DNA of 64,000 bases from Thermoplasmatota archaeon (GCA_023489435.1 JAMDCA010000037.1:23587-87586), one strand, 5' to 3'. Positions 1 to 24,813 are shown, counted from the stretch's first letter. The notes: a model not told the origin generated them from the letters alone. A program made the numbers and translations.

Positions 1-711
1 GGCCGCCACGTAGAATATCCAGTTATAATTGGGTGGTGTGCCGTAGTAAAAGGTTGTTGTGGATGAGCCTATGTTCCCATTTATGCTGATCAGCTGGTTT
101 CCGGTGGTAACCTTGAGAGTATGTTCTCCATTTCCAAGATACTTCGCAGGGTTAAGTGGGTATGTAAAATTTACACTTACCGCCTGGTTGGGCGCAATTG
201 ACTTTACTGTAACGTTTCCTATTGGGCTTCCAGAATTGTCCAGATAAAAGTTTACAGTGAGGTTCTTAACCGTGGATACTCCAGTATTCTTGACTACTGC
301 ATGGAAAACAATAGGATCAACAATAGTTACTTGGATTGTCTGCGATGTTTTCACTGCAGTTGAACCAGACTGTGCTGCGGAAATTATTGTTATGTAAAGT
401 GTCTGTGATGTGGACGGACTCGTAACGTTGAATTTGAAATCAGGTTTGCTTGCCTGGAAATTGTGTATGGAAGATGCTGGAGAAAGCCCAGTCAGATTGT
501 TTCCCGCGACATAGGCAGTGACGGAGTAGTTTGCAAAACCGCTTGTGTCATTGACATAAACAGTGAAATTCTGCCCAACAAAACTATATCCGCTTGCTGA
601 AATGGACTGGTTGAAAGGCGGTACATAGCTGTAAGCTGATGCAGTACCAACTGCCGCATATGAAGTAAGCAAAAGCAGAGCCAGCATTCCAATCAGAAAT
701 GGCTTACTCAA
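1..711 (-). CDS. Secreted surface glycoprotein with CARDB-like beta-sandwich domain. C-terminal part lies beyond the left window edge. Absent from the supplied ORF track.
   Basis: Minus-strand frame is open for all 237 codons from 711 to 1 (checked triplet by triplet; no tta/cta/tca in plus frame 1). The first possible start after the upstream in-frame stop (793-795) is TTG 709-711, which overlaps the AglB stop TGA 708-710. N-terminus (M)SKPFLIGMLALLLLTSYAAVGTASA is signal-peptide-like. VVKNTGVSTVKNLTVNFYLDNSGSPIGNVTVKSIAPNQAVSVNFTY is CARDB-like. Many N-x-S/T sequons. Confidence 0.6.
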   Translation of the reverse strand, partial: MSKPFLIGMLALLLLTSYAAVGTASAYSYVPPFNQSISASGYSFVGQNFTVYVNDTSGFANYSVTAYVAGNNLTGLSPASSIHNFQASKPDFKFNVTSPSTSQTLYITIISAAQSGSTAVKTSQTIQVTIVDPIVFHAVVKNTGVSTVKNLTVNFYLDNSGSPIGNVTVKSIAPNQAVSVNFTYPLNPAKYLGNGEHTLKVTTGNQLISINGNIGSSTTTFYYGTPPNYNWIFYVAA

Positions 712-3700
712 CTTTTTCTCCCCCTGTATGCTGAAATGCCAAGACCCGCAACAACAGCTACTACGATTACTACAATGCCGGCAATCAGGTTTTCAGTTGG
801 AGTGCCCGTATAGTTTGATGTAACAAGGGGTCCTGTGGGGTACGGAGTTACACTTGCTGATGGCGAAGACTCAAGTGTAAGGTAGGCAGCCTTTCCTGGC
901 AAACCGGTTGAAGTTGCATTGACGTTGAAGCTAACAGGATATGGGGGATTGGCCACTTTTGGACTCATTGACACGTACACTGTCTTGACAGTGTTGTATT
1001 GCAGAACCACAGTAAGGTTTGTCGAATCAGTTCCATTGAAGATTCCTGACCAGCCGTTCTGGTTAAGCACAGTTTCGTTGAATGATAAGTTAACGGTTAC
1101 CTCACCGTTTCCTGTGTTGTTCAGTATAATTGGCAGGAAAGCTTTGTTGCCTATATAGATCGGGCTAATGCCTGGTTTTAGACTGTAATTGAGGCTCTTT
1201 GCAATCACAACAGGCAGTGAAAGCTGTTTCGAGCCGCCTGAATATTTCACGTTAAACGGTATTGAACCGGCACCATATTCTTGCTTCCCAGATAGTGTTG
1301 CATTCATGGTGAATGTTGAGTTCCCGCCCACCGGTATAGTCGAATTGCCCACAAATGTTGTTTGCCAACTGCTGCTTCCGGAGGCCAGTGAAACCGTTTC
1401 ATTGCTGTTTCCGTTGTTATATAGTATGAACTGGTAGGTGAGATTGCCACCCTTGTTTATTGTTGCAACACTTGACAGTAATTTCATCTGGAAGGAGTGA
1501 ACCACTACTTTTGAAAGAGTGAGTGGCACAACCTGGTTGGATGAAAGCTGCATACTAACAGAACTGGAATATGATACTGACAGATAGCTACCGTCCACTG
1601 ACTGCTCGCTTGAGGATAAAGTGGAGGAGAAATCATATCCTCCCTCCGGCAGAAGAAGTGAACCAGAATTTGGAATGGCAACCAGCTGTGAGTTACCTGT
1701 TGTTATGTTTACCGGGTTGTTGATTGTTTTTGATTCCAGATTGACACTGAATGAGACTGAATAAGCTCTTGTCAAAGTCAAGTTCTGACCGTATGAGGTT
1801 GCATAAGCAGGAATGTTGATTGCTCCAAGGCTGGAGAGCTTGCTGGCATTGTTAACCGCATACACAGTGTACAATCCTGTTGGAGATTTAATGGTATAAC
1901 CTCCGCTGTTATTAGTAAGGCTTGAGGCAACAACATTGCCGTTTGCATTCACGTACTCAATGTAAGTGTTAGGGTATGGTGTATTTCCATAGTTGATGTT
2001 ACCTGTAACTGTGGCAAAGACCTCATTCTCCGTTGTTGAAACGTTTAAAGCCGCATTGCCTTTCAAAGAGAGACTACCTGACCCTGAATAAATGAATGAT
2101 CCGGTGCTGTTTGACTGTTTTTCAATATAGCTAACTGAATAGGTGCCCTGTGGAAGCATTATGCTTCCCTTGGATGCGTTTATGGTTCCAATGCCTGAGG
2201 TAATAGAATAGGTTCCTGAATTGAGCCCCAGGCTGTTGGACAAGTTCAGCCCATAAGCCGAAATATAGTTCGGGGAAATGGTTGTTGAGGAGGTGACGTA
2301 TGTCTTGCTTAAGTTAACCTGGTTTAAGGAGCTGTTGTAAGCATACAGGATATAATGGCCGGTCTTCACGTTTTTCAATCCATTAACTGCCGTTCCATTC
2401 AGATAGTAAAGCTTGGCCACATTGGCATTCTTAACACTTACATTGGCAAATTGAACCAGGTTCAGGGATATGTTAGAGGGTGTTCCTGTGTCTATTGAAG
2501 TATACCCGGGATCAAGCAATGACTGAATGCCGGATTGGTTTATGGTTGCCCCGTACACACCTATTGGTACCTTTACAAGACCTGTCCCGTGAAGCAGTGT
2601 GAAGTCGAAGGTTCCCTGCGATGAGGCGAGAGTAAGCGTCTGGAATGAAGTGGTCAAAAGTGTTGAATTCAGCGAAACCTGAAGGCTCTTCTCAATTGGT
2701 GAAACCGGTACCGGTACCTGTTGGGCCCCCACATTCACTGTATTCCCTGTGTAATATGAACCCGCAAATGTTACAGTAAGGCCGCTGTTTGTTCCGGATT
2801 GGTAATATAAGCTTGCAATTCCTGAAGACCCGACGGGATCATAATAGACTGGGAATCCCCCATCTTTGAGAATCACGATTCCTGAAGTAATTGCACTCTT
2901 TGCATTGTAGCTACCGGTACTGTTCTGGTTATAAAGCAGTGCTGACACGCTGTTGTTTGAAGTCAGGCTCAGATTAAGGCTCTGGTTTCCAAAAAGGTTC
3001 ACCCGGTCATATGCTGAAGAGGTCCCGCCGGTGTAAATGCCTATGCCCGCAATTGAATACACACCCTCAGGGATTTGGACCGTCAACTTGTGGGATGTTG
3101 TTGCGAAGTCATAGGATAACATTGCGGAATTATTCAGGATTTCATACGTGCCAGAATATCTTGTGGCACCAGGTACATTAGAAGCAAGGGTGATATTTGA
3201 CGATGGCTGTAGCGATATGTTAGAACTGTACGTTCCGTTCAGAACCACAGTTTTCATGTAAGACATTTGACCATCGGTTGCATAGATGGTGTAGACCCCA
3301 TAAGGCATGGATCCCGTGAAAATTCCATTGCTTGAGCTCAAAGAGATTGCATTTGACAGCAACCCATTGGTGAGAAGCTTCACACTGGTATCTGCACTAT
3401 TTCCGGATATTCCGATGGTTACATTCGCCGAAAGCTCCGGACTCAACTGCAAAGTAGTATTGCTGCCCCAGTTTAAGAAACTTGCAGATTGGCTGAAAGA
3501 TCCTACTCCGGCACCAGATGTAGAAACATTGTAAATTCCTGGTGTGACCCAGATTGTTGCAGTTCCTTCAGCGTTTGTCTTAGTCGAACCAGCAACATAA
3601 CCATTAGAACTAGTTGCAGAAACACCGATTCCGCTGATTGCTTTTCCTGCAAGTGTTACGTTTGCAAAAATTACATCATATGGAACCTTTACGTTATAAA

Positions 3701-6700
3701 CAACGTTGCCACCATTGCTGATATTGGCTGTCTGAACATTGGAAAATGTTCTGCCACCAGTTTTCAAAGACACCTTATAGGAAATAGGCGGTAGATTGGA
3801 TAATGAATACTCCCCCCCAATAATGGGTGCAGAGTAAGACAGGTTGTACTGGCTGCTGCTGTAAGTAATTGTTCCATTCTTTATCACAGATGTGACAGGT
3901 TTTGTCTGGGTGGAATTCTGTCCTGAAGATGATTGCTGATACTGGAATGCGACATTTCCCGATGCAGTGGTGTTCGAAAGCTGGAGATTCTGCTGAATAT
4001 AGTAGTCAGGAAGGCCAGTGGATTGGTTGTAGGATGTGGGTATCCTGTTAGCCTGATTTGTTGAAACATACACATTTTTTGTGCCAAGAGTGGTGTTTCC
4101 TATCAGGTACTGGTTATTTGTTGGTCCTGTTGAATAGAAAATGGTATCATTGCCAGGTAGACCGGTAACGTTGTAATATCCCTGGCTGTTTGTCTGCACA
4201 ACGCCATGTGGAATTCCATACTGGTCGAATAGAGTTACATGGACTCCGGGTACTGGGTTTCCATCCGGCATTGTGACTCTTCCATGTATGGTAGCACCAG
4301 AGTAGTAAGCAATTATGGGGTCTGATATGGAAAGAGAGGTGGAAACCGGTGGCGTAAGATCTACCGTACCCAGTTTATGCTGCTGGTAATAATAAGCCTG
4401 GGAAAGCGGCACTGTAGTCCAGGCAGACGGGTGAGCTGAGTAATCTTTGTAAGGATTGTATGGAACATTTTCGTAAACGACCATGAAGTTGCTCATATTC
4501 CAGGCAGGCTTCACGGAGTACTGGGTTGAGCCATAAGATATGCCGGGTATCCCATTAGACTGCCCGAGGACACTGGGTGGAAGCCCAACTGTGAACCGGT
4601 AAATTGAAGTGTTGTAGAATTGTGGTGTGAACTGTATATTGTAAGCATTTGGTATGTATCCCTGGGGGAGATTCTGAAGCGAGAATGTTCCATTGTTTGT
4701 GTTAGCATATATGTTGTAGTATTCCGTTGGGATAATGCCTCCACCTGGAGAGCTGTATGAGGGCGAATCTGTAAGAAAAGCAGGTGCGTAAAATATACCC
4801 GTGTTCTGAGCGGAGGTTGGCAGTAGAGAAGCAAGACTCGAATCTGTTGGAATCTGAAGATATTTTATGCTGTAACCTGTGTCTGCCATTATAGCTTGAT
4901 AAAGATTCACTAGGGTCGATACAGAATATTTGCTTGCCAGTTGGCCCTTGATATATGCAAAATACACATTAGTTCCGCTTACACCTTTAATGTACTGACC
5001 ATATATGGAGGGGCTAGCGAGTACTACACTGGTTAAGGACGTTGGATTTGAGGAGACTTTTGTTAGGTTGTTATATTCGCCATATCCCAGATACTGAATG
5101 AGTGTGTTCTTAACCGGACCATTGAAATCACCATTGGTGAAATTGGCCTGTATCAACCTGCTAACGAACAGACTGATGATTTGAGACTCATTCTGCGCGA
5201 GGAGTGTCTGTCCTGCCATTTCAACAGCCTGCTGGAAATCGTCTGCAACAGTCGGGTGCTGACCCTGATATCTTTCCTGGAAACCGTAGTCCCACCAGGA
5301 GAGGTATGAAGGTTTATCCTGTATTGGAAGGTTGGAATTCTGTGTGCTAAGCCACGCAAAGGATTTGCTCAATGGGGTAGAACCGTTCGAGATACCGCCG
5401 CTAAGCCCACCAACAAAGTTAGTGGTGTTATTTGTCTTAAGGAATCCGGGGAGCGAGTTTGCAATCTGGTTCTCTATCTGTATCTGGGCTGAACTGCCAG
5501 CTGGCACAGAGGCAGAAACCATTGAGGTTGCCGCTGGCAATACAATTAGTAATGTTACAAAGAGTACAAAAACTGCCTGAAGCCATTTGATATTACCCTT
5601 AACTGCTTTAAATGGAGAAGATGAAGCAGAGGGTTTCTTTTTCTTTACCTCATCAAGCCTGGAGATCCTTGAGAAGAGCAATAATACTCCTGCCGCAAGA
5701 ATGGCATATGCAGGTGCCGCCGTAATGTTGAAACGTGCAGCTTCAAAGCTCATGTATATGGATACTACTGAGAAAACCAATATGAGAAGTAACTGGTCAG
5801 TCTTCTCCTTGAGGAAAAGGTATGCTCCGTATCCGACTCCTACAATTCCAAGCAAAAATTGGGCAATTCCGAATCCTCCAATATAAGAGCCGAGTGCCGG
5901 TGCTGCTGCTTCAGCGATTGTAGTGTAAACTCTTGTCTTGATGAAATAACCGTCGCCGCTGATGAGTCTGTAGAAAAGGGCGGGACTAAGATGAGCCATG
6001 CCCTCAAGTCCAGCAACTACGGCAATTATGAGAACCGGTAAGACGAGTACCCATGGTCTTCTTCCAACCAGGCCTATAAGGGCACCAAAGATGAGCATAA
6101 CAAGCCCGATTTCAAGCTCAGCATTATACCATCCACTTAGCTCATTCACTCCGACGTAATAGTAAAGGCCCATTGCAAAGCCTAGGAAGATAAATAGAGT
6201 GGTGTAATAAGTAATGTATCCGGTGGGGCGCTTGAAAATAAGGTTCACAACGAGCTGAACTGCAACGTATATGAGTAGAATTGCCTCTATGTAAGCATAC
6301 CCCTGCCAGGAAAGCATAAGGCCACCTAGTGAGGCCCCAGCCAAAAGACCGTATATCGTTGCAATCCTATTTCTGTTAAAGAACTGGTAAATCTTAATAT
6401 GATACGTCTTGAAATCACTGAGGTTTTCAATGATCCTTGTCTTCTCTGAAAGCTTGATAGCCCTGAGGAAGAAGTAAATTGCAAAAAATGCGAATATAAG
6501 TTCAGGGGTGTGCATCCTTCCGCCTGACAGGATACCTGCAGAAAGATTGCTCGGCATGAGGGTGTAAAGCAGGGCGCCTACTCCAGCTGCATTCTTGCCA
6601 AAGATTTCCTTTGTGATAAGATAAACTGGAATTATGAGAAAAGCCCCAAAGACTGCGTCAAATTCCTCGAAAACATAGAAAGCGGCATTCTGGGTACCAT

Positions 6701-7037
6701 AGATTGGTGATAGGATCTCTGCTACTAAGGCTATAAGCCAGTGGAAGAAAGGATTCCTCGGATTTATGGTTCCCAACGGGTAATTTAAGGTTGGATCGTG
6801 CACCAACTGTGTATGCAGATTCAAAATGTGCAGTATTGCAACAAAGTTGTAGTAAGGATCGCTTCCTCCAGATGTAGGAAGAGCAGCTATTCCTCCACCG
6901 TAAGTGAAGGTTGCAGCCCAGTAGAAATAATTCGAGAGGAAAAGGTAGACTGCAACCAATATACCGACGATTATTACTTCTGAGTAGTTGTATATCCTAG
7001 ATAGTCCGTTAAATTTAGTCTCAAGCTGTAATTCCAT
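708..7037 (-). CDS. aglB: Archaeal oligosaccharyltransferase AglB (STT3 family) fused to a ~1200-aa sequon-rich beta-sandwich extension with a C-terminal TM anchor (2109 aa)
   Basis: Multi-TM N-terminal half. GSDPYY in the first loop. WWDYG at aa 581-585 (nt 5283-5297, verified on the plus strand as accgtagtcccacca). C-terminal extension has a CarboxypepD_reg-like segment (ATIHGRVTMPDGNPVPGVHVTLFDQYG) and CARDB/NEW3-like segments. Terminal TM LIAGIVVIVVAVVAGLGISAY plus basic tail RGRKS. Confidence 0.85.
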   Translation of the reverse strand: MELQLETKFNGLSRIYNYSEVIIVGILVAVYLFLSNYFYWAATFTYGGGIAALPTSGGSDPYYNFVAILHILNLHTQLVHDPTLNYPLGTINPRNPFFHWLIALVAEILSPIYGTQNAAFYVFEEFDAVFGAFLIIPVYLITKEIFGKNAAGVGALLYTLMPSNLSAGILSGGRMHTPELIFAFFAIYFFLRAIKLSEKTRIIENLSDFKTYHIKIYQFFNRNRIATIYGLLAGASLGGLMLSWQGYAYIEAILLIYVAVQLVVNLIFKRPTGYITYYTTLFIFLGFAMGLYYYVGVNELSGWYNAELEIGLVMLIFGALIGLVGRRPWVLVLPVLIIAVVAGLEGMAHLSPALFYRLISGDGYFIKTRVYTTIAEAAAPALGSYIGGFGIAQFLLGIVGVGYGAYLFLKEKTDQLLLILVFSVVSIYMSFEAARFNITAAPAYAILAAGVLLLFSRISRLDEVKKKKPSASSSPFKAVKGNIKWLQAVFVLFVTLLIVLPAATSMVSASVPAGSSAQIQIENQIANSLPGFLKTNNTTNFVGGLSGGISNGSTPLSKSFAWLSTQNSNLPIQDKPSYLSWWDYGFQERYQGQHPTVADDFQQAVEMAGQTLLAQNESQIISLFVSRLIQANFTNGDFNGPVKNTLIQYLGYGEYNNLTKVSSNPTSLTSVVLASPSIYGQYIKGVSGTNVYFAYIKGQLASKYSVSTLVNLYQAIMADTGYSIKYLQIPTDSSLASLLPTSAQNTGIFYAPAFLTDSPSYSSPGGGIIPTEYYNIYANTNNGTFSLQNLPQGYIPNAYNIQFTPQFYNTSIYRFTVGLPPSVLGQSNGIPGISYGSTQYSVKPAWNMSNFMVVYENVPYNPYKDYSAHPSAWTTVPLSQAYYYQQHKLGTVDLTPPVSTSLSISDPIIAYYSGATIHGRVTMPDGNPVPGVHVTLFDQYGIPHGVVQTNSQGYYNVTGLPGNDTIFYSTGPTNNQYLIGNTTLGTKNVYVSTNQANRIPTSYNQSTGLPDYYIQQNLQLSNTTASGNVAFQYQQSSSGQNSTQTKPVTSVIKNGTITYSSSQYNLSYSAPIIGGEYSLSNLPPISYKVSLKTGGRTFSNVQTANISNGGNVVYNVKVPYDVIFANVTLAGKAISGIGVSATSSNGYVAGSTKTNAEGTATIWVTPGIYNVSTSGAGVGSFSQSASFLNWGSNTTLQLSPELSANVTIGISGNSADTSVKLLTNGLLSNAISLSSSNGIFTGSMPYGVYTIYATDGQMSYMKTVVLNGTYSSNISLQPSSNITLASNVPGATRYSGTYEILNNSAMLSYDFATTSHKLTVQIPEGVYSIAGIGIYTGGTSSAYDRVNLFGNQSLNLSLTSNNSVSALLYNQNSTGSYNAKSAITSGIVILKDGGFPVYYDPVGSSGIASLYYQSGTNSGLTVTFAGSYYTGNTVNVGAQQVPVPVSPIEKSLQVSLNSTLLTTSFQTLTLASSQGTFDFTLLHGTGLVKVPIGVYGATINQSGIQSLLDPGYTSIDTGTPSNISLNLVQFANVSVKNANVAKLYYLNGTAVNGLKNVKTGHYILYAYNSSLNQVNLSKTYVTSSTTISPNYISAYGLNLSNSLGLNSGTYSITSGIGTINASKGSIMLPQGTYSVSYIEKQSNSTGSFIYSGSGSLSLKGNAALNVSTTENEVFATVTGNINYGNTPYPNTYIEYVNANGNVVASSLTNNSGGYTIKSPTGLYTVYAVNNASKLSSLGAINIPAYATSYGQNLTLTRAYSVSFSVNLESKTINNPVNITTGNSQLVAIPNSGSLLLPEGGYDFSSTLSSSEQSVDGSYLSVSYSSSVSMQLSSNQVVPLTLSKVVVHSFQMKLLSSVATINKGGNLTYQFILYNNGNSNETVSLASGSSSWQTTFVGNSTIPVGGNSTFTMNATLSGKQEYGAGSIPFNVKYSGGSKQLSLPVVIAKSLNYSLKPGISPIYIGNKAFLPIILNNTGNGEVTVNLSFNETVLNQNGWSGIFNGTDSTNLTVVLQYNTVKTVYVSMSPKVANPPYPVSFNVNATSTGLPGKAAYLTLESSPSASVTPYPTGPLVTSNYTGTPTENLIAGIVVIVVAVVAGLGISAYRGRKS

Positions 7038-7127
7038 TGGGGTCGTTCCTGAGGTGCTCTAATATAATCTAAATATAAAAAACTAATCTGAACGCACTGC
7101 ATCCTTATTCAGCTATTTTCTTAAAAA

Positions 7128-10536: not shown

Positions 10537-10875
10537 CTACTTCACGTTCTCTTCCTTTGAGATTTCCTTGATCTCCTTGTTAATCTTGTTCAGGGTATAA
10601 TCCCTGAGAATGACCCGTATAAGGTCATCCAGTGAGATGGCAGTGCCTTGGTCAATTTCTGTCTCAAGTTCAGCGATCATCTTCTTAGGCAGAACCAGGT
10701 CTACCTTTGATGTGGGCCCCTTTCTGTAGTTGCGCTCTATAAATTCGTCAATGGCCCTTCTTACAACATCCGATACTGTCTCGTACTGGAAGTTTTCCAC
10801 CAACTCCTCGAGTTGGCCCATAGTTTCCTTTGTCAGCCTGACAGTTATCCTAAATGGTACAGACAGTATTTTCAC
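10537..10875 (-). CDS. Ribbon-helix-helix (CopG-like) DNA-binding protein with two tandem RHH modules
   Basis: Module 1: FRITVRLTKETMGQLEELVENFQYETVSDVVRRAIDEFIE. Module 2: KVDLVLPKKMIAELETEIDQGTAISLDDLIRVILRDYT. Both follow the strand-helix-helix pattern. Confidence 0.6.
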   Translation of the reverse strand: MKILSVPFRITVRLTKETMGQLEELVENFQYETVSDVVRRAIDEFIERNYRKGPTSKVDLVLPKKMIAELETEIDQGTAISLDDLIRVILRDYTLNKINKEIKEISKEENVK

Positions 10876-10925
10876 CTCTCATGCAAAGAAACCAATGATC
10901 CATGTAAGGAGGATTGGCATCATAC

Positions 10926-11046
10926 ATTCGTCTGACAAATTAATGCCTTAATATAAACTTTGTTAATACAAAATAAACATACTAAATTTCGTCTGTGGTT
11001 TAAAGCAGTCATTAAATAGGTTTCCCTCAAAATTGGCAGACGAAAT
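10926..11046. promoter_or_regulatory. Three copies of a TTCGTCTG motif in the divergent promoter region (two direct, one inverted); putative operator set
   Basis: attcgtctg at 10926-10934. atttcgtctg at 10986-10995. Its exact reverse complement cagacgaaat at 11037-11046 (10-bp perfect inverted repeat, ~41-nt spacer). Lies between the RHH gene and the LbH gene. Confidence 0.45.
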
Positions 11047-11071
11047 ATCGCGCCCTATGTACAAACATTAA

Positions 11072-11632
11072 GTGAAAGAACCACTTACAGTTGTAATGCC
11101 CATACTTATTGGAAAGAACTGTTATATTGCCAATACAGCAGTTCTAATCGGGGAAGTTACAATAGGTGATGATGTGGCTATTTTTGACCATGTAGTCCTA
11201 AGAGGAGATCTCAATAAGATAATGGTTGGAAATGGATCCAATATACAGGACAACGTAACATTTCACACAGAGATCAACCATGGCACATCTATTGGTGAGG
11301 GCGTCTCAGTGGGGCATAATGCTGTTGTTCATGGATGCGAACTCAAGGATAACATAATAGTTGGAATGGGTGCCATAGTCATGAATGGGTCCAAAATACC
11401 CTCAGGATGCGTCATAGCAGCAGGGGCAGTTGTCACTGAAAATTTCACCTGCAGAGAGAACTCCCTTATTGCGGGGTTGCCAGCCAAGGTAAAAAGAGAA
11501 GCGGATCCACTTCTCCTTGAATATGCTAAGAAGAATGCCCAGTCTTATGGTGTACTCAGGGAAAAACATTTAGCCGGTGATTTTCCCAGGGAAACCGGCA
11601 AAACCCTGAAAGGCAGGAACGCACCTACATAA
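11072..11632 (+). CDS. Gamma-class carbonic anhydrase-like / hexapeptide-repeat (LbH) family protein
   Basis: Left-handed beta-helix hexapeptide repeats ([45 protein letters not shown]). GTG at 11072; ATG at 11096 is an alternative start. Confidence 0.75.
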
Positions 11633-11754
11633 GCCCCTGCATTCGGTTCTGCACTGCTCTTTACAGAGTCACAGATATGTTCCCGTACAAAAAACTGATA
11701 TTAGAAACTCTTGGGTTCCACCGTTTGAGGTGTCTAATGAATAGAACACTAAAA

Positions 11755-12453
11755 ATGGGAGTTAAAAAACTCCAGAGAGCCTTCAGCCTTAAGGCCAATA
11801 GGGCTGAAACCGGGATTGGAACCCTGATTATCTTTATAGCCATGGTTCTAGTCGCAGCAGTAGCAGCAACCGTGCTGATACACACAGCCGGAAGCCTGCA
11901 GCAGAAAGCAACAAGCACTGGTACGTCAACCACCCAGCAGGTAGCAACGGGACTTACCGTCTCATCAGTTTGGGGCCTTGACAACGCATCAGTTGTGGAG
12001 TCAGGAAGCATAAGCGAGATTGCCATCTACGTTACACCTAACGCAGGCAGCTCGGGAATCAACCTGAACCAGACAACCGTGCAGTTAACTTACAACGGCA
12101 TCACAGCCTCGTTGACCTACAGCACAACCAACAGTAACACCACCAAGAGCTTCCATGATGTAACATCCGGAACCAGCAACGTTTTCCAGAGTGAATTCTT
12201 CAAAGCCGCGAATGCAACAAATTTTGCAGTCCTTGATCTGAAGGATCCGCAGAAGTCCATGACAAAATACTACCCAGTTGTAACATCTGGTGGAGAAGCT
12301 GCAATACTCATTAACGTTACCGCCGTCTTTGGGATTGGAATCACACAGAACGCACCTGTGACAGGATCTGTCGTACCGCAAGTGGGCAACCCGGGAGTGA
12401 TACAGTTCAGCGCACCGTTTGCTTTCACACAGAAGGTTATGGAGCTCCAGTAA
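11755..12453 (+). CDS. arlB: Archaellin (archaeal flagellin) with class III signal peptide
   Basis: [42 protein letters not shown] is the hallmark archaellin N-terminus. Several N-x-S/T sequons. The track ORF starts at 11677, but ATG 11755 gives the usual short leader (11737 is also possible). Confidence 0.9.
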
Positions 12454-12490
12454 GCTCCAAATACCTTCTCCTATTTGAGCAGTGATTACA

Positions 12491-12982
12491 ATGGGTCTCT
12501 TCGATAATATAAAGGGCTTAGGCAAAAAGAAGAAAGAGACCACAGTCAACGTACCCCAGCAGAATTCACTCATACAACCACCTACAGAAGCACAGCAGAG
12601 CACACAGTCATTTGACAGTAAGTTCATTGATGGTGTTAATCAGCGAATCAGTGCGGTGGAAAACGAAGTCAGTAAACTGAATGTATCAATGGAAACCGCG
12701 AAGAGGAACATATCTGAAATCAAAGAGGAGTTGGAGAAAGTGAGGGAGAATGTCAAAATGGTAGTATCATTGTATGAAATGGTATCCAAGAAATTCAACC
12801 CCTTCATGGATGTAACTCCTGAGGAAATCAAGGAAGTCACTGATGTGCTTAGGGAGAACATACACGACCTGGAGAGAATGGTACAGTATGCTATCGATGA
12901 TCTCAAGGAACTATATGGGGCCCCTGATCTTGATGACATGATTTCAGATGTAGAACACCAGGAGGATACAAATGATCAATGA
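12491..12982 (+). CDS. arlC: Archaellum accessory protein, FlaC_arch-type coiled coil (ArlC-like)
   Basis: Coiled coil followed by VVSLYEMVSKKFNPFMD, matching the slYEvVs..NPF signature of the FlaC domain. Position directly after arlB. Confidence 0.65.
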   Translation: MGLFDNIKGLGKKKKETTVNVPQQNSLIQPPTEAQQSTQSFDSKFIDGVNQRISAVENEVSKLNVSMETAKRNISEIKEELEKVRENVKMVVSLYEMVSKKFNPFMDVTPEEIKEVTDVLRENIHDLERMVQYAIDDLKELYGAPDLDDMISDVEHQEDTNDQ

Positions 12983-13664
12983 TGCGTTGAAAAGTTTTCT
13001 GCAGACCAAAATGGACTCTGCAGACAAGACCATTCCTAAATTTGTACTGGAAGAGCTTCGGCAGAAAATACTGAACTCGCCTACGAAATTCTCAAAATCG
13101 GACATTGAAGCCCTCTTTAACAATCTGGAGCAAAGGTATAGCGAAAGCAAAGAGAACTCACTCTTAGGGAAGGTGGACAACCTTTTCAAGGAGATATCAA
13201 ACGTCGAGAAGATGCTATCTGGAGAAGGAAACAAGAAGAAGCCTAATGAACCGGATGCGGAAACTAGCCAGGTGCAGGCAAGATACCCATGGAAGGCCCA
13301 CAGAAAAGCCAAGCTGGAAACACTTGGTGATGATGTGGTCTCACTCATGGTTGCCTTGCGATGGCTGGAGTTCCTGTTGGACAACTATGGCCCGGAGAAC
13401 ACCATGGATGTGCTGGACTACTACGAGAGCATAGGATGGATTTCCCAGTCAGTAAAGGAACAGATGATAAAGTTCACGAAAATGACTGGCCTGATCAGCC
13501 CTGTGCAGGAGTACAAGGTCAAGCCTTCAATCCAGGACCACATAGTTACCATGCTCTTCATCGAAAAGCTCAACGGTGGCGAGATTACAAGAGATCTGAT
13601 CGAAGCACTGGAAAGAGACTTCAGAATGTTGAAGAAGGGAGTGGACGAATTATATGGGATTTAG
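12972..13664 (+). CDS. arlD: Archaellum accessory protein with FlaD/E domain (ArlD/E-like)
   Basis: VALRWLEFLLDNYGPENTMDVLDYYESIGWISQSVKEQM matches the FlaD/E signature. Start overlaps the arlC end. Confidence 0.7.
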   Translation: MINDALKSFLQTKMDSADKTIPKFVLEELRQKILNSPTKFSKSDIEALFNNLEQRYSESKENSLLGKVDNLFKEISNVEKMLSGEGNKKKPNEPDAETSQVQARYPWKAHRKAKLETLGDDVVSLMVALRWLEFLLDNYGPENTMDVLDYYESIGWISQSVKEQMIKFTKMTGLISPVQEYKVKPSIQDHIVTMLFIEKLNGGEITRDLIEALERDFRMLKKGVDELYGI

Positions 13665-14076
13665 TTACGTTGTAGCTGTGGCAATATTGCTAAGCTCTTC
13701 CCTTATTTTTTTCGGCATAATATATTCCGACTATGTGCACACGGAAACACAGATAAATGATGCACAGCATAAGGCATACTTGCAGAATTACGATTACATG
13801 AATTCCAAGGTCAGCATAGACAACTATAGCTATGCCGCCTCGGGTTCAAACTTCACAGTAACTTTGAACGTTACAAATACGGGGAGTGTGACCCTCAACA
13901 TGAATCACACAAACGTGCTGGTTAACGGTAGCCTCGTTAACTTCACATATGGCAGTCAATACCTGTTCCCCCTGGGAAACGATACAATAACGTTCATCAC
14001 AGGAGCGGGGACACACAATGTGGAAATGGTGTTTAACACGGGATATGAAAAATTTGAAAAAGTGGTGATACCCTAA
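13654..14076 (+). CDS. arlF: Archaellum stator/anchor protein ArlF (FlaF)
   Basis: 140 aa. N-terminal archaellin-like hydrophobic helix MGFSYVVAVAILLSSSLIFFGIIY, then a beta-rich domain. Operon position. Confidence 0.7.
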   Translation: MGFSYVVAVAILLSSSLIFFGIIYSDYVHTETQINDAQHKAYLQNYDYMNSKVSIDNYSYAASGSNFTVTLNVTNTGSVTLNMNHTNVLVNGSLVNFTYGSQYLFPLGNDTITFITGAGTHNVEMVFNTGYEKFEKVVIP

Positions 14077-14522
14077 TGGCGTCAATGGCAACTTCGGAAA
14101 TGATATTTTTCATTGCCACGCTCATATTGAGCGTCAGCGTAGTGGGTGTGCTAGGTGGCCAGACAGCCCATCTTTCCCTTGGAATGCAGAATTCCGCCAA
14201 GGGAACATCCAGCCAGATCCAGACGAACTTTGAGATAATAAACGACCCAAGCAGCATTCCTTACGAGAATGGGTACGTGTTCTACATAAAGAACACCGGT
14301 GAGACGGGAATTTATTTCACAAATGCGACAGTTAATGTGCTCATCAATGGCACGCTCATTTCGGGCAGCGAGGTAAGCATGGTTTCTCCTGGAAACACGG
14401 GGGAACTCATGCCCAGCCAGGTGGGCGAGATAGTGGTCAATGTGACCATCCCCAGTGGATATAATGAAATAACAGTGTCTGTGTCCAATGGGCTGAGCAA
14501 GAGCATGGAATTCCTAATTTGA
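14076..14522 (+). CDS. arlG: Archaellum protein ArlG (FlaG)
   Basis: 148 aa. N-terminal SEMIFFIATLILSVSVVGVLGG. Start shares one nt with the arlF stop (TAATG). Confidence 0.7.
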   Translation: MASMATSEMIFFIATLILSVSVVGVLGGQTAHLSLGMQNSAKGTSSQIQTNFEIINDPSSIPYENGYVFYIKNTGETGIYFTNATVNVLINGTLISGSEVSMVSPGNTGELMPSQVGEIVVNVTIPSGYNEITVSVSNGLSKSMEFLI

Positions 14523-14532
14523 TGGTGAAGCG

Positions 14533-15204
14533 ATGTATCTGAATTTTTCCCTTGAGGGGGATGAACTGGATAGGCGAATGGGCGGAGGTTTGTATCTCGG
14601 CCAGGTGATAACCATAGAAGGAGGCAGCGGGGCAGGAAAAACTCTCCTGTGTTTGAGATTAGCCTATGGTTTGATAAAACATAATACAACCGTCGCCTAC
14701 ATATCGTCCCAGTTCCCCATCAGGGAATTCATCAATGAGGCGGAATCACTGGGCTACCCCATGATGAATGAAATACTTGCTGACCAGGTTTCCTTCATAA
14801 CCTCGGTGTTTCTAATGAGGAAGAACAGGAAAGCAACCCTTGACGAGCTCCTGAACATGGAGCAGGTCAAAGACAAGCAGGTCCTCATCATAGATGCACT
14901 GAACCCTGAAATGTTCAGCGATTATGATGTTGGAGAATATTTCTCAAAACTGAGGAAGTTCTCGGAAAACAGGATAGTCATCGTCACAATAAATCCAGCA
15001 GATGTTGGGAAAAACAACCTTTCAACTATACATGAGCTTTCCACAACAATAATAGCACTCACCACAAAGGATCTTGCAGGAGAAAGAAGGCATGTGGTTG
15101 ACCTGGTGAAATTTCCCATGGCACTCAACTCATTCCAGCAGGCAATTCCATTCAGGATAGAACCCAAGCGTGGGTTGATAGTTGAAATCTCAAGCGTATC
15201 ATGA
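14533..15204 (+). CDS. arlH: Archaellum KaiC/RecA-like ATP-binding protein ArlH (FlaH)
   Basis: Walker A GGSGAGKT; ~220 aa; operon position. Confidence 0.85.
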   Translation: MYLNFSLEGDELDRRMGGGLYLGQVITIEGGSGAGKTLLCLRLAYGLIKHNTTVAYISSQFPIREFINEAESLGYPMMNEILADQVSFITSVFLMRKNRKATLDELLNMEQVKDKQVLIIDALNPEMFSDYDVGEYFSKLRKFSENRIVIVTINPADVGKNNLSTIHELSTTIIALTTKDLAGERRHVVDLVKFPMALNSFQQAIPFRIEPKRGLIVEISSVS

Positions 15205-15213
15205 GGAATTAAA

Positions 15214-16833
15214 ATGGCAGATTATGTAATATCAGACAGTCTTGAGGTAGCGGTTCAGAGGAACCCGCACCTTTACACTTACATCAATGAATACCGTGCA
15301 CTGGCACAGAGGACCCCGCAGTTCGTGCCTGTACCGGACAACTCACTTCGGGATATTGCTTCTCTGGATGTCATTTATCCCGTGGGAGACCCAATATTTA
15401 TTCACATTTACACTGAGAACGGGACCAAGATCTACAAGCCGGTTGAACCTGACCTCACCATGGAGGAACTGGGTTTCATGGAACAGATCCTGGGAGTCAT
15501 ACTGAATTATGCAGCAGACTACCCTCCCCCGGAATCTGAGGAAGTCCTGGACCACAACCTTGAAGATATCTACAACAAAGCAGTGACAGTTGGGTCAACA
15601 AACAAAGTCAAGTTGACTTCAGTTACCATCAAGGCTGACCTTCGGGACAAAATGCTCTATAACATCAAGAAAGATGTCATAGGTCTGGGGCCGATTGAGC
15701 CACTTATCCGAGATTCTAACATTGAAGATATCAGTGGCATAGGTGCAAATGACATATTTATCGTGCATAAGATATTTGGTTCCCTGAAGACGAGAGTGAG
15801 CTTTGGAGACAATGACCGCCTTTCAATATACAGCAAAAGGCTAAGTGAACGAGTCGGAAGGCCGGTATCAGACAAGACTCCGATCGTTGACGCCACCCTT
15901 CCGGATGGTTCCAGGCTCTCAATTGTTTACAGCAGTGATGTTTCAACACGTGGGCCGAGCTTTACAATCAGGAAATTCGCAGATATTCCAATAAGTATTG
16001 TTCAGCTGGTCAGGTTCAACACACTTTCAGCTGAGGAAGCTGCCTATCTCTGGCTAGCATTAGAATACGGCCAGAGTGTCTTCGTGTGCGGTGAAACAGC
16101 CAGTGGCAAGACTACAGTCGTTAACGCAATGGTGCCTTTCATAAGGCCAGAATCCAAGATATTCAGCGCAGAGGATACCCCTGAAGTGAGGGCCCCTCAG
16201 GAAGCCTGGCAGCAGCTTGTCACAAGAGAAAGAGGTGCCGAGGAGAGCAGAGTTACCCTGTTCGATCTGTTAAAGACGGCATTGAGGTCAAGGCCAAATT
16301 ACATCATTGTGGGAGAAATCCGAGGAGCTGAAGGATCCATGGCCTTCCAGGCAATGCAGACAGGGCACCCTGTCATTTCAACATTCCATGCGGCTTCCGT
16401 CAAGAAAATGATACAAAGGTTCACAGGAACACCGATTAACATACCTGTCACTTTCATGGATAACCTGAATATTGCCCTCATACAGCAGGCCGTGTACGTA
16501 AACGGGAAATTTCTGAGAAGAACAACCAGCATAAACGAGATTGAAGGTTACTTCGAGGAACTTGGTGGAGTTTCAACCAAGCAGGTATTCCAGTGGGATG
16601 CAACCAATGACAAACACGTGTTCAGGGGACTCAATAACAGTTACATATTAGAGAAGAGAATTGCACAGACTGCCGGAATGACAGACCCGAAGGCAATTTA
16701 CGACGAGTTGTTCAAGAGGGCCAGGATCATAGAATGGATGCTCAAGAACAACATAATGTCATACTACAAGGTGTTTGAGCTCATCAAGTCTTTCTACACC
16801 AAAGGTGCAGAATCAATACCGATATACGGGTGA
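15214..16833 (+). CDS. arlI: Archaellum motor/assembly ATPase ArlI (FlaI)
   Basis: Secretion-ATPase family. Walker A GETASGKTT, Walker B-like YIIVGEIRGAEG. 539 aa. Confidence 0.92.
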   Translation: MADYVISDSLEVAVQRNPHLYTYINEYRALAQRTPQFVPVPDNSLRDIASLDVIYPVGDPIFIHIYTENGTKIYKPVEPDLTMEELGFMEQILGVILNYAADYPPPESEEVLDHNLEDIYNKAVTVGSTNKVKLTSVTIKADLRDKMLYNIKKDVIGLGPIEPLIRDSNIEDISGIGANDIFIVHKIFGSLKTRVSFGDNDRLSIYSKRLSERVGRPVSDKTPIVDATLPDGSRLSIVYSSDVSTRGPSFTIRKFADIPISIVQLVRFNTLSAEEAAYLWLALEYGQSVFVCGETASGKTTVVNAMVPFIRPESKIFSAEDTPEVRAPQEAWQQLVTRERGAEESRVTLFDLLKTALRSRPNYIIVGEIRGAEGSMAFQAMQTGHPVISTFHAASVKKMIQRFTGTPINIPVTFMDNLNIALIQQAVYVNGKFLRRTTSINEIEGYFEELGGVSTKQVFQWDATNDKHVFRGLNNSYILEKRIAQTAGMTDPKAIYDELFKRARIIEWMLKNNIMSYYKVFELIKSFYTKGAESIPIYG

Positions 16834-16838
16834 AGTGA

Positions 16839-18494
16839 ATGCCAGAGTTCAGGTTTCTAGGGACAGTTTCCAAGATAGAATTTAAGAAAAGAGACCTGGC
16901 AATAATGGGCATTTCACTTGTCCTTGTTGTTGTGGGAATTATTCTTTACAACCTTACCGGAATCCTGTATCTCGCAGGAGCCGCTGCTGTTGGCGCCGTA
17001 TTAGTGCTCTTCATTATTCTGCGGCCTGTGCTTGAAAGGGATGTGGCCAAGACCGATATCAATTCAAACATACCATATTTCATAACTGCATTTGCAACCC
17101 TCTCAGTCAGTGCAGCAAACAGGATCGACATGCTGGAGCTCCTGTCTGAGAAAGAAAAACTGGGCAGGATCAAGGATGAGATAGCAAAACTGGTAAACCT
17201 TGTCAAGAACTGGAGAAGGGGGCTTTCAGAAGCTGCGATGTTCCTCTCATCCAGATCTCCAAGTGAAATTTTTGAGGATTTCCTAGCAAGGTTTGGTCAC
17301 GCTATCAACAGTGGACAGGATTTTGAAGAATTTGTGAACAACGAGGCAGAGACCGTGATGAGCAACTTTGAAACCACGTATATTTCTTCGCTCTACACAT
17401 TCGACCTTTACAAGGATCTTTACGTTTCAATGCTGCTGTCCTTTGCATTTCTTATAACATTTGTAATGATAATGCCTATACTCATAAACATCAATATTGT
17501 CCAGGTTCTGTCACTGAGCCTGCTAACAATTGTGCTTGGGGAGGCAATGCTTGTTTATGGAATCAAGGTAGTGCTGCCAAATGACCCCATATGGCACAAC
17601 ACTGGGATTAAGACTCCCCTGCAACTCAAGATTCAAAAATACCTTATTATTGGATGTGCCTCATCTGTTGTTCTTCTAGTCATCTCCTTAGTGATGCGCC
17701 TTTACACGATTCTGCCTTTTTACCTCATAATAGCCATAATCGTAACCCCGCTATTTGTGCCCGGTTATGTGGGTTCGAAAGCGGAAAAGATAGTCGCAAA
17801 GAAGGATGAGATGTTTGGAAGTTTCATCAGGTCCCTTGCAGGATCAGCTGCTGCGAGGGGCAATATGATAATAGAAGCTTTAAAAGCTATCGTACTCCAT
17901 GACTTTGGTACTCTCACCTCAGATATAAGGGCACTTTACAGAAGGCTCGCATACAGGATCAACAACCTCTCATCCTGGAAAAATTTCAGCGCAGATACTG
18001 GATCTCACCTTATAGAAGTGTTTTCGGAGAGCTTTGTTGAAAGTGTTGAACTTGGGGCAAATGCTGATAAGGCGGGAGCCGTGGTTGCAGACAATTTTGA
18101 CAGGGTTATCAGGCTCAGAAAGAGAAGGCATGCCTCGGTAACCAGTTACGTGGGCGTCCTTTATGGCATAACAGGTGGGCTGGCATTTTCACTCGCAATC
18201 GCATTTGGGGTGCTGCAGATCATAAACAAGGTATTCTCCACCTTCAATGTACAGTCCCTGAACTCCTTTGGAATATTTGTTTCCCAGCCGCAGTCTTCAA
18301 TACTCACCATAGAGGGTTTCATTATTGCAATACTGCTTGTACACTCATTCATTGCGGGGACTGCCCTTAAAATCGCAGACGGTGGAAAAGTTGTACACGG
18401 ACTGCATCATTTCGTTATCATGACATGGATAGTAACCACTGTCATGTATGGGACACTGCAGATTGTAAACCTGATATTGGGCGGTTCCCTGTAA
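16839..18494 (+). CDS. arlJ: Archaellum membrane platform protein ArlJ (FlaJ)
   Basis: 551-aa polytopic membrane protein directly after arlI (T2SS-F-like architecture). Confidence 0.85.
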   Translation: MPEFRFLGTVSKIEFKKRDLAIMGISLVLVVVGIILYNLTGILYLAGAAAVGAVLVLFIILRPVLERDVAKTDINSNIPYFITAFATLSVSAANRIDMLELLSEKEKLGRIKDEIAKLVNLVKNWRRGLSEAAMFLSSRSPSEIFEDFLARFGHAINSGQDFEEFVNNEAETVMSNFETTYISSLYTFDLYKDLYVSMLLSFAFLITFVMIMPILININIVQVLSLSLLTIVLGEAMLVYGIKVVLPNDPIWHNTGIKTPLQLKIQKYLIIGCASSVVLLVISLVMRLYTILPFYLIIAIIVTPLFVPGYVGSKAEKIVAKKDEMFGSFIRSLAGSAAARGNMIIEALKAIVLHDFGTLTSDIRALYRRLAYRINNLSSWKNFSADTGSHLIEVFSESFVESVELGANADKAGAVVADNFDRVIRLRKRRHASVTSYVGVLYGITGGLAFSLAIAFGVLQIINKVFSTFNVQSLNSFGIFVSQPQSSILTIEGFIIAILLVHSFIAGTALKIADGGKVVHGLHHFVIMTWIVTTVMYGTLQIVNLILGGSL

Positions 18495-23425: not shown

Positions 23426-23692
23426 ATGGGAGACGTAGCAGTATTGTTAAAAATTTTGCCCACAGATGTGGAGCTTGATATCAACGTCATCAAGGATGAG
23501 GTTGTAAAGAAGGTAAAGCCCCTTTGTGAAGTAAACAATGTGGAAATAAACGAAGTGGGTTTCGGCCTTAAGGCCATAAAGTTACAGGTAATTGTGCCCG
23601 ACCAGGAAGGAAAGATAGACCAGGTTGAACAGACTATCTCCAGTGTCGACGGAGTTGGCCAGGTAGATACTGAAGAAGTTACTCTTGTCTAA
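23426..23692 (+). CDS. Translation elongation factor 1-beta (aEF-1beta)
   Basis: 88 aa from MGDVAVLLKILPTDVELD..., ending VDGVGQVDTEEVTLV. Typical size and sequence. The track ORF start 23381 overlaps the Zn-ribbon gene and is not used. Confidence 0.85.
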   Translation: MGDVAVLLKILPTDVELDINVIKDEVVKKVKPLCEVNNVEINEVGFGLKAIKLQVIVPDQEGKIDQVEQTISSVDGVGQVDTEEVTLV

Positions 23693-24777
23693 TGTCGCTT
23701 CCGTGGTTATTTTATAACTTTTTTTTCGATTTATTCGTTGCATTCCTTTTTCTAGTTTTTTTAGGTTTGACATATATAGCAGCAATAAGGAACCGTAACG
23801 ATACTTATTCTGGGAAACCCCAGTCTAAAGCTCTGGTAATAGTTCCCTGCAGAGGGCTTGACTATTCCCTTGAGGCAAACCTCAGAAGCATAATGAAGCA
23901 GGACTACAGCCACCATGATATCATAGCTGTAGTTGATTCTGCAGACGATGCAAGTGTTCCAGTGCTCAATGAAGTGGGAATGAAATGGATGCTTGCAACT
24001 GACCGTTGCGTGAACTGCAGCGGCAAAGTCAGGGCAATTTCCTCTGCAATTAATGGCTCCGAACCATACGAAGTCTATGTCATTGCAGACTCAGACATTC
24101 TTGTAAAACCGGATTGGCTCTCAAAGCTACTTTCCCCCATGATCAATCCTCATACTGGAATATCGACCACTTTTCCTTATTTTGAACCTGTGGGCGGATT
24201 CTGGTCTAAGGTAAAACTTATCTGGGGCTTCGTTGGCCTTGGCATGATGGAATCCAGCATAACAAGATTCGGATGGGGCGGATCACTTGCATTCAGGGCT
24301 GAACTGATCCAGGGTGAAGGCATGGAATTCTTCCGCAACTTTGTTTCGGATGATATAGCACTGACTAAGCTCTGCAAAAAGATGGGGCTAAAGATCGCAT
24401 ATGTAAAGGAAGCGATGCCCACAATCAATTCGCCGGACGATTTTGCAACTTTCATGGAATGGGCAAACAGACAGACCGCACTCTCAGTATATTCCACGAG
24501 AAGGGTACTCAGGCTTGGCCTTATTTTTTACGGGGCGTCAATTCTACTGTTCATTTCATCCATAATCCTCACTTTTCTGGTATTCCCGCTCTTTGCGTTA
24601 TTCCTGATTCCAGCCCTCATAAATGCTGCCAGAGCGGTAAAAAGGTCTGGAAAACTGCCTGTTTACTCTTTTTTCATAAGTCTGCTCATACCGTTCATTT
24701 ATATCTACAATCTGACCAAGGCGGCGGGTATGAAATCCATAAGCTGGAGAGGGAGGGATTACTCACTGGAAGAGTAA
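23692..24777 (+). CDS. Membrane-bound family 2 glycosyltransferase (GT21/ceramide-glucosyltransferase-like)
   Basis: N-terminal TM. VIVPCRGLDYSLEANLRSIMKQDY, VVDSADD, ADSD (DxD). C-terminal TM helices. ATG shares one nt with the EF-1beta stop (TAATG). Confidence 0.7.
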   Translation: MSLPWLFYNFFFDLFVAFLFLVFLGLTYIAAIRNRNDTYSGKPQSKALVIVPCRGLDYSLEANLRSIMKQDYSHHDIIAVVDSADDASVPVLNEVGMKWMLATDRCVNCSGKVRAISSAINGSEPYEVYVIADSDILVKPDWLSKLLSPMINPHTGISTTFPYFEPVGGFWSKVKLIWGFVGLGMMESSITRFGWGGSLAFRAELIQGEGMEFFRNFVSDDIALTKLCKKMGLKIAYVKEAMPTINSPDDFATFMEWANRQTALSVYSTRRVLRLGLIFYGASILLFISSIILTFLVFPLFALFLIPALINAARAVKRSGKLPVYSFFISLLIPFIYIYNLTKAAGMKSISWRGRDYSLEE

Positions 24778-24813
24778 TCCGCGTAAATTATTATATTACA
24801 ATACAATGAAAAC

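Follow-up and report, generated by a model that had tools for sequence, protein, structure and literature searches.

Mechanistic work on AglB, the archaeal oligosaccharyltransferase (OST), has to our knowledge been carried out entirely on proteins of 600-970 amino acids (aa), and we know of no study of the oligosaccharyltransferase of any member of the Thermoplasmatota. N-glycosylation is thought to aid acid survival of these wall-less archaea. In the eukaryotic OST, the type-I subunits ribophorin I/Ost1 and OST48/Wbp1 each place beta-sandwich domains in the lumen and are held by a single C-terminal transmembrane (TM) helix. The chain of the Archaeoglobus fulgidus enzyme, AglB-L, is 868 aa long, compared with the 2109 aa of the protein analyzed here, which is encoded at one end of a 64,000-nucleotide stretch of DNA from a Thermoplasmatota archaeon (GCA_023489435.1 JAMDCA010000037.1:23587-87586; this whole stretch is called the window below). 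We consider it fairly probable, from the sequence and from structural models, that this giant AglB is an active OST with a built-in, glycosylated and doubly anchored surface rod of immunoglobulin (Ig)-like domains, and that it works together with the CARDB-domain product of an adjoining partner gene.

A single uninterrupted gene

The giant AglB gene occupies positions 708..7037 of the minus strand as a single ATG-initiated open reading frame (ORF) of 2109 codons, with no internal stops, and encodes a 225-kDa protein that contains no cysteine. GC content is level along the ORF, and a search for DNA tandem repeats within it, as a possible assembly trap, found none. A 2109-aa product of 100% identity is called in ~12 independent assemblies, the same continuous ORF is present in the closed genomes of Thermoplasma volcanium GSS1 and Oxyplasma meridianum M1, and the full-length layout is kept in ~65 other species genomes. 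Because the independent assemblies, the closed genomes and the conservation across the family agree, a frameshift or fusion artefact was rejected. The initial annotation of this DNA had named a hidden stop or frameshift near the junction between the OST core and its extension as the result that would undo its proposal; this is excluded by the identical assembly products and by the full-length genes of the closed isolate genomes, and the ORF does run on from the OST core as it had described. Its estimate of a ~1200-aa extension also stands, with the correction that the extension begins at about residue 910 (nt 4310), not at nt 4337. AT-rich TATA-like elements (7059..7080, minus strand) can be read directly from the sequence of the 90-nt gap that precedes the ATG, and may represent an archaeal promoter.

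The enzyme half

Residues 1-909 are, by sequence and predicted structure, a complete AglB/STT3 oligosaccharyltransferase, because an AlphaFold2 (AF2) model of this segment matches the whole A. fulgidus AglB-L chain. The model (mean predicted local distance difference test score, pLDDT, 73; predicted template modelling score 0.66) has a helical bundle in its membrane part, and the top 19 Foldseek matches to it are all AglB, STT3 or PglB proteins. The best of them, A. fulgidus AglB-L, is matched across the entire 867-residue target (E 2.4e-16, TM-score 0.54/0.56), with eukaryotic STT3 and bacterial PglB ranking after it, and the same protein was matched at E 1e-9 in a profile search of the PDB. 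The proposal that residues 1 to ~900 already make up a full archaeal AglB is thus borne out.

The GT-C membrane domain (residues 1-510; 5508..7037, minus strand) is delimited by Pfam and NCBIfam matches, hydropathy, AF2 helices and Foldseek, and its last hydrophobic helix lies at residues 489-507 in a hydropathy scan. Pfam STT3 matches residues 59-458 at 31 bits (cut-off 24.5). The NCBIfam model archaeo_STT3 (TIGR04154), which represents the archaeosortase-A-associated AglB subfamily, matches only residues 37-619, at 173.7 bits and thus under its curated cut-off of 450; by this measure the giant AglB is related to that subfamily but is not a member of it. The extracellular soluble domain of a canonical AglB follows at residues 511-909 (4311..5507, minus strand), as indicated by Foldseek and by weak Pfam AglB_core/STT3-PglB_core matches at residues 573-639.

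The sequence motifs expected of an OST are in place, and those listed at the outset were found where they had been put. In the first external loop, GSDPYY (residues 58-63; 6849..6866, minus strand) contains Asp60 of the segment SGGSDPYY, which is invariant, as is the whole of S56-P61, among 55 aligned sequences. Asp60 aligns with the Asp of GGNDPWY in A. fulgidus AglB-L (D47). External loop 5 carries the TIXE motif as an invariant T373-I-A-E376 (5910..5921, minus strand). The catalytic motif WWDYG (residues 581-585; exactly at 5283..5297, minus strand) is invariant as well; it is followed directly by a nearly invariant HPTVADDFQQ, and conservation stays high onward to LLAQNxSQ. NFMVVYENV lies at residues 850-858. 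Six N-x-S/T sequons of the enzyme half (N164, N437, N551, N616, N809 and N847) are kept in at least 90% of the family, which suggests that they are fixed glycosylation sites on the OST itself.

An altered second metal-binding motif

The second metal-binding motif, of the DxD, DxE or DxH type in other OSTs, is non-canonical here: by alignment it corresponds to GGRMHTPE (residues 172-179; 6501..6524, minus strand), in which R174, H176, T177 and P178 are invariant within this clade. At the columns of R174 and H176, A. fulgidus AglB-L shows D-H-H (D161 and H163 in the published numbering), so that the His is shared and the Asp is replaced by Arg; H176 or E179 is a candidate to take on the role of that Asp. 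The same columns read A-D-H-D in the Poseidoniales, in normal-sized relatives and in wider Thermoplasmatota relatives, and N-Y-L, L-F-D or G-Y-D in other giant lineages. The R-x-H variant is taken here to be functional, on the assumption that these genomes hold no second OST, because the giant AglB of Thermoplasma, which databases label STT3, carries the same R-x-H, and Thermoplasma is known from published work to N-glycosylate membrane proteins. Having Arg where a metal-binding Asp is expected might adapt an outward-facing active site to a pH below 2, or might go with an altered metal dependence.

A stalk of beta-sandwich domains with its own anchor

Beyond the enzyme, residues 910-2060 are confidently predicted to fold into ~13 beta-sandwich domains, and the AF2 model of residues 910-2109 (mean pLDDT 85.9) consists of an unbroken series of beta-strands, after which come a linker of 20 residues modelled with low confidence and a helix at the end. 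This agrees with the initial description of a beta-sandwich-like stalk with its own C-terminal anchor. The first part of the stalk (residues 912-1847; 1497..4304, minus strand) is made up of ~11 paralogous domains of ~85 aa that resemble CarboxypepD_reg. Pfam PF13620 matches the protein at 60.9 bits (cut-off 32.3) in three stretches, the first from residue 916; further copies are matched when the stalk is searched as sub-fragments, and hidden Markov models (HMMs) built from single domains of the family detect each other from residue 912 to ~1847, which gives the count of ~11 repeats. The second part (residues 1848-2060; 858..1496, minus strand) is predicted by AF2 to comprise two Ig-like beta-sandwich domains; these share no sequence relation with the repeats, and their one Pfam match, to a HYDIN/VesB-like Ig domain, is weak (E 0.045). 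The enzyme joins the stalk without a linker. At the other end, a putatively disordered membrane-proximal linker (residues 2061-2080; 798..857, minus strand; pLDDT below 50 at residues 1152-1171 of the AF2 fragment) leads to the C-terminal TM helix (residues 2084-2104; 726..788, minus strand; hydropathy 2.85 and an AF2 helix) and to the basic cytoplasmic tail RGRKS (residues 2105-2109; 711..725, minus strand), of a kind found throughout the family.

The modules had been described at first as CarboxypepD_reg-like together with CARDB- or NEW3-like segments such as LPIILNNTGNGEVTVNLSF (residues 1968-1986). The former assignment holds, whereas Pfam searches of the whole protein and of its last 330 residues at E<=1 found no CARDB or NEW3 domain in the giant AglB, and CARDB occurs instead in the partner described below. 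Foldseek and the PDB profile search returned only generic Ig rods for the stalk, namely NOMO2, the Bacillus anthracis TIE protein, alpha-2-macroglobulin MG arrays and hydin-like proteins, and neither search found a catalytic or lectin fold. A particular functional fold for the stalk was rejected, as the Foldseek matches are to generic arrays of Ig domains with TM-scores of at most 0.11. No C-terminal sorting model (PGF-CTERM and similar) was matched in NCBIfam at E<=1, despite the TM helix and basic tail. The stalk polypeptide has a mass of 120 kDa and a low charge (3-4% acidic and 3-4% basic residues), and is rich in Ser, Thr and Asn.

Sequons in the stalk

The giant AglB contains 62 N-x-S/T sequons, 49 of which lie in residues 901-2075. 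When the composition of that segment was shuffled, the expected number was 28.9 +/- 4.5, as compared with 48 observed in this test (z = 4.3), and none of 2000 shuffles reached the observed count. Sequons take up 41% of stalk Asn residues and occur at a density of 4.2 per 100 aa, as compared with 0.4-0.65 in nearby proteins (five cytoplasmic proteins and the membrane protein ArlJ). The initial claim that the stalk carries dozens of sequons is therefore correct, but to call it saturated overstates an enrichment of 1.7-fold. Across the family the load is kept at 43-83 sequons per stalk, yet only one stalk column of the family alignment holds a sequon at a conservation of at least 90%; at the column of N2075, which belongs to an NYTG.P sequon in the linker, 71% of the family have one. 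Sites that drift while their density stays steady are what one expects of an exposed surface protein covered with glycans.

A translationally coupled partner gene

The window edge cuts a second gene, of which the first 237 codons are present (1..711, minus strand) and whose TTG start overlaps the AglB stop within TTGA. This partner lies directly downstream of the giant AglB gene in 68 of the 70 loci in which the giant gene is complete, mostly with a 4-nt overlap (for example as the ORFs at 16228-17007 of locus L001 and 16339-17148 of locus L003), and T. volcanium and O. meridianum share this arrangement. Its product, a type-I membrane protein of 246-304 aa (~260), has a signal peptide and a CARDB domain (Pfam, 25.3 bits; cut-off 22.7), carries the conserved motifs NLTG.SP and FYYG.PPNY.W, and in full-length orthologues finishes with a C-terminal TM helix followed by a 'PKWKK' tail. 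All 128 clusters of partner sequences are unnamed or labelled CARDB, and those with organism names belong to the Thermoplasmata. A profile search of the PDB matched the partner to CARDB domains from structural genomics only and to no OST subunit, and NCBIfam yielded nothing useful. The idea that the partner is a paralogue of the last stalk domains was rejected, as BLAST found no similarity between them. Because the translational coupling is held across the phylum, the partner gene most likely encodes a stoichiometric partner of the giant AglB.

The giant form across the Thermoplasmatota

Three surveys were used to place this architecture among its relatives. A word-indexed homology search listed 120 clusters, and 116 of these are full-length proteins of 2045-2161 aa that align end to end at 35-85% identity, including those of T. 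volcanium GSS1, O. meridianum, Cuniculiplasma and Caldiplasma. A genome scan with one genome per GTDB species gave 464 relatives; among the best 80 loci, which were examined and take in Aciduliprofundum and I-plasma, nearly every ORF that is complete has 2029-2350 aa and a TM helix with a basic tail at its C-terminus. The exceptions in that set are a 942-aa gene of a Methanomassiliicoccaceae member, a 1433-aa form and a 1590-aa form. With only the enzyme part as query, an exhaustive HMMER search of representatives at 50% identity gave 231 sequences at E <= 1e-30. Proteins of 2000-2775 aa make up most of the best 150, with an additional group of ~3150-3190 aa, one cluster of which bears Poseidoniales names, and relatives of ordinary size gather at the weak end of the list (E ~1e-56 to 1e-67). 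Because the cluster, species-genome and HMMER surveys agree, the giant form is, on this genomic sampling, the standard AglB of the Thermoplasmatota. The length tabulation proposed with the initial annotation thus shows a layout of ~2030-2350 aa to dominate.

The departing loci merit a separate word. They are L038 (Acidiplasma aeolicum), L053 and L064; the 1433-aa form keeps the TM helix and basic tail, and the 1590-aa form is without the tail. All three may have been shortened in evolution, or their assemblies may be faulty at this place. The long forms of the Poseidoniales (Marine Group II; P0266 and P0278-P0281; ~3150-3190 aa) keep the canonical ADHD, and their STT3 domain begins near residue 390, so they have an N-terminal extension besides the long C-terminal one.

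Conservation is uneven along the protein. When homologues less than 50% identical to the query are compared with it, identity is 44-64% in the enzyme half, 53% in the first stalk domain and 20-33% in the remaining stalk, with hardly any indels, so the number and length of domains appear to be constrained and the surface residues not. The junction (residues 801-1000) equals the catalytic core in conservation (0.52-0.53 identity) and is almost gap-free.

The gene itself is not new. Giant AglB sequences have been in databases since the Thermoplasma genomes of 2000, and they are often or usually annotated as STT3 or AglB. No publication on the architecture was found in a literature search, beyond whose reach some relevant subscription literature lay. 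The initial view that the architecture is undescribed therefore holds in the sense that no paper was found, but its view of the protein as a peculiarity does not, since the form is standard for the phylum and labelled copies were already on record.

Proposed function and alternative explanations

Under the hypothesis that we favour, the giant AglB would be the organism's N-glycosylation oligosaccharyltransferase, in which the enzyme of residues 1-909 would lead into an extracellular rod of 11 CarboxypepD_reg-like and 2 Ig-like units, then a flexible linker, the second anchor and the basic cytoplasmic tail. The ectodomain would be tethered at both ends, because the rod ends in a second membrane anchor. 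Stalk sequons could be filled in cis or by adjoining AglB molecules, and the stalk and partner may add to a glycoprotein coat or act as a cell-surface spacer in the Thermoplasmatota. Here we infer both the catalytic activity and the glycosylation of the stalk. The initial suggestions that the stalk may be the enzyme's own substrate and that the protein may organise the envelope are plausible.

Some dimensions can be suggested for such a rod. The TIE protein spans 19 nm with four domains (PMC8327139). When the length per domain is taken from TIE, 13 domains at ~4-4.75 nm each would give a contour of ~50-60 nm, and a doubly tethered arch could therefore reach a height of ~20-25 nm. Both C. divulgatum and O. 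meridianum reportedly have an unordered exterior protein layer of ~20 nm, with no lattice and no S-layer genes, and O. meridianum and Cuniculiplasma spp. encode giant AglB. The height of the arch is of the order of that layer, and the two might be linked. A bolder proposal, which we hold to be doubtful, would make the giant AglB and its 'PKWKK' partner the chief blocks or the scaffold of the ~20-nm layer that stands in for an S-layer in the Thermoplasmatales; the enzyme would be a structural coat protein, anchored twice, that glycosylates itself and whose R-x-H site would work at an external pH below 2 and possibly without metal.

There is also some evidence on expression. The proteome of C. 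divulgatum S5 includes an Oligosaccharyltransferase AglB, CSP5_1323, with 43 peptides, 19 of them unique (PMC7285479). Beside it, CSP5_1324 (PheT beta) and CSP5_1325 (CopG) mirror the gene order of the window, and because of these matching neighbours CSP5_1323 is probably the orthologue of the giant AglB. Support from RNA-seq was looked for in the data published with the 2025 cryo-EM study, and no matching entry was found.

Several observations weigh against our hypothesis and should be set beside it. The abundance of CSP5_1323 is moderate, ~5% of that of a thermosome subunit and unlike that of a dominant coat protein, although glycopeptides and TM peptides would escape detection; the partner is absent from the C. 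divulgatum proteome list. Aciduliprofundum, which has an S-layer, carries a giant AglB; the giant AglB therefore cannot simply replace an S-layer, and the tie to wall-less archaea that had been suggested at first is weak. In the stalk, a control motif of reversed order, [ST]-x-N, is somewhat raised too (39), and some of the surplus of sequons may therefore stem from Asn, Ser and Thr lying close together. In the active site, the second metal-binding motif reads R174-M-H176 where relatives carry D-x-D, and two residues upstream of R174 an Asp172 found in most Thermoplasmatales is Gly in the sub-clade of the window.

The alternatives can be ranked by weight as an accessory role in catalysis, cleavage of a precursor, a pseudo-enzyme and an assembly artefact. 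The first, which is unlikely but merits the most attention, is that the stalk and partner serve catalysis, as a counterpart in a single chain (plus one subunit) of the eukaryotic OST accessory subunits: the C-terminal helix and the partner helix would pack on the GT-C domain, and the beta array would capture or hold unfolded acceptors, or else the lipid-linked glycan, close to the Sec exit. The tight, gap-free and highly conserved junction between the enzyme and the first stalk domain would be explained in this way, as would a total length that is remarkably constant over the family, the translational coupling with a bitopic two-domain partner (68/70 loci), the retention of membrane-proximal motifs in both proteins (NYTG.P and FYYG.PPNY.W), and the likeness to the layout of the eukaryotic accessory subunits. 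However, ~13 domains with a contour of ~50 nm extend far beyond the reach needed to the active site, the identity of the stalk is low (20-33%), its sequon sites drift as in a shielded surface protein, and the partner has no sequence similarity to any OST subunit in the PDB.

A second, improbable alternative is that the chain is a precursor, cut near residue ~910-1000 into a normal AglB and a C-anchored surface glycoprotein of ~120 kDa, and that the glycosylated fragment could equal the classical ~150-kDa membrane glycoprotein of Thermoplasma acidophilum, the size of which is ~152 kDa. By itself the stalk has 120 kDa of polypeptide, 48 sequons and its own anchor, and T. acidophilum has been described as having a mannose-rich glycoprotein as a major membrane component (Yang & Haug 1979, as cited in PMC2952790). 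The junction is at odds with cleavage, as it contains no linker and no stretch of low confidence or low conservation; residues 901-1000 are among the best conserved and are modelled confidently by AF2. In addition, neither a protease site nor a known sorting signal could be recognised, and no data require cleavage.

A third alternative, to which we give slightly less credence still, is that the OST domain is dead or repurposed, a pseudo-enzyme that anchors a surface stalk while another enzyme carries out N-glycosylation. The R174-M-H176 sequence in place of D-x-D, the N-Y-L or L-F-D at the same columns in other giant sub-lineages and the change of Asp172 to Gly could all be read in this way. 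However, D60, the TIxE Glu, and WWDYG with the loop that follows are invariant among sequences only 35-40% identical overall, which argues for selection on catalysis, and the OST half is the best-conserved part of the protein. Moreover, the active A. fulgidus enzyme also has a His at the third motif position, and Thermoplasma with the same R-x-H does N-glycosylate proteins. Finally, that a sequencing or assembly error joined two neighbouring genes is scarcely credible, given the identical products from ~12 assemblies, the uninterrupted ORF in closed T. volcanium GSS1 and O. meridianum M1 and the same architecture in ~65 further species, and no support for such an error was found.

Neighbouring genes

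A complete archaellum operon (11677-18494 on the plus strand, with 10537-11632) lies 4.6 kb from the AglB gene and contains genes for archaellin, ArlC, ArlD/E, two small archaellin-like proteins, ArlH, ArlI and ArlJ, the last three of which were assigned through position, homology and size. The order AglB, AAA_assoc_C, PheT-beta, CopG, hexapeptide transferase and archaellum is the same in O. meridianum, and in part in Cuniculiplasma divulgatum. Genes for a GT21/GT2 glycosyltransferase, a phosphoglucomutase/phosphomannomutase and a dolichol-type cis-prenyltransferase lie at 23692-26196 (plus strand) and 28587-29363 (minus strand), and together form a loose neighbourhood of glycan-pathway genes in the same window as AglB. 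No second STT3 gene was found among the ORFs checked within the window. Further away (40860-43864, minus strand), a GT2 gene with a GtrA/DPMS membrane domain resembles dolichyl-phosphate hexose synthase and overlaps by 4 nt a 636-aa ORF without a Pfam match, which could be a further unannotated membrane protein of the glycosylation pathway.

Implications

A whole phylum appears to use an AglB of more than twice the usual size, which combines an Ig rod and a second anchor with a changed metal motif and is regularly accompanied by its partner gene; new here are the previously unrecognised partner gene, annotated so far as hypothetical, the altered active-site motif and the phylum-wide scope. The giant AglB is a testable candidate for the surface protein layer reported in 2025, and with its partner it is a possible simple multi-subunit OST outside the eukaryotes. 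It also provides a natural test case for how GT-C enzymes depend on metal when the pH is very low. Many copies are now labelled 'glycosyltransferase family 39', 'carboxypeptidase regulatory-like' or 'hypothetical', so even if the stalk were merely a passive decoration, correction of the annotation would still be useful.

Comparison with known systems

A. fulgidus AglB-L (PDB 3WAJ, 5GMY, 7E9S) shares the fold of residues 1-909 over its whole chain, and has in common with the giant AglB the Asp of the first external loop, the TIXE Glu, WWDYG and, in the second metal motif, the His in third place; the first residue of that motif is Asp in A. fulgidus and Arg in the giant AglB. Unlike the giant AglB, it lacks a multi-domain stalk and a second anchor, and is not known to have a coupled partner gene. 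The eukaryotic OST also has an STT3-type catalytic subunit (Foldseek matches 8AGC and 6S7T). Unlike its other subunits, the extra modules of the giant AglB are fused to the catalytic chain or encoded in one overlapping gene, and the eukaryotic accessory subunits are far shorter than the stalk and show no detectable sequence relation to the partner.

For the stalk, the closest likeness to a rod of known form is to NOMO of the BOS complex, a string of CarboxypepD_reg/Ig-like domains that likewise ends in one TM helix; the family profile matches NOMO2 (9c7v_B) at E 1e-4, and NOMO, a flexible rod of ~27 nm that sets membrane spacing, resembles B. anthracis TIE (PMC8327139), as does the stalk. However, NOMO is eukaryotic, is not fused to an enzyme and is anchored at a single end, so the likeness is one of domains and not of orthology. 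Archaeal surface glycoproteins, such as the S-layer protein of Haloferax volcanii and SlaA/SlaB of Sulfolobus acidocaldarius, are similar to the stalk in being rich in sequons, low in charge and rich in beta-structure, and in ending with a TM helix and a basic tail; for the S. acidocaldarius S-layer protein, 31 sequons are predicted (PMC2948927). In contrast to these S-layer glycoproteins, the giant AglB has no known lattice and no PGF-CTERM-type sorting motif, and its stalk is covalently part of the very enzyme that would glycosylate it.

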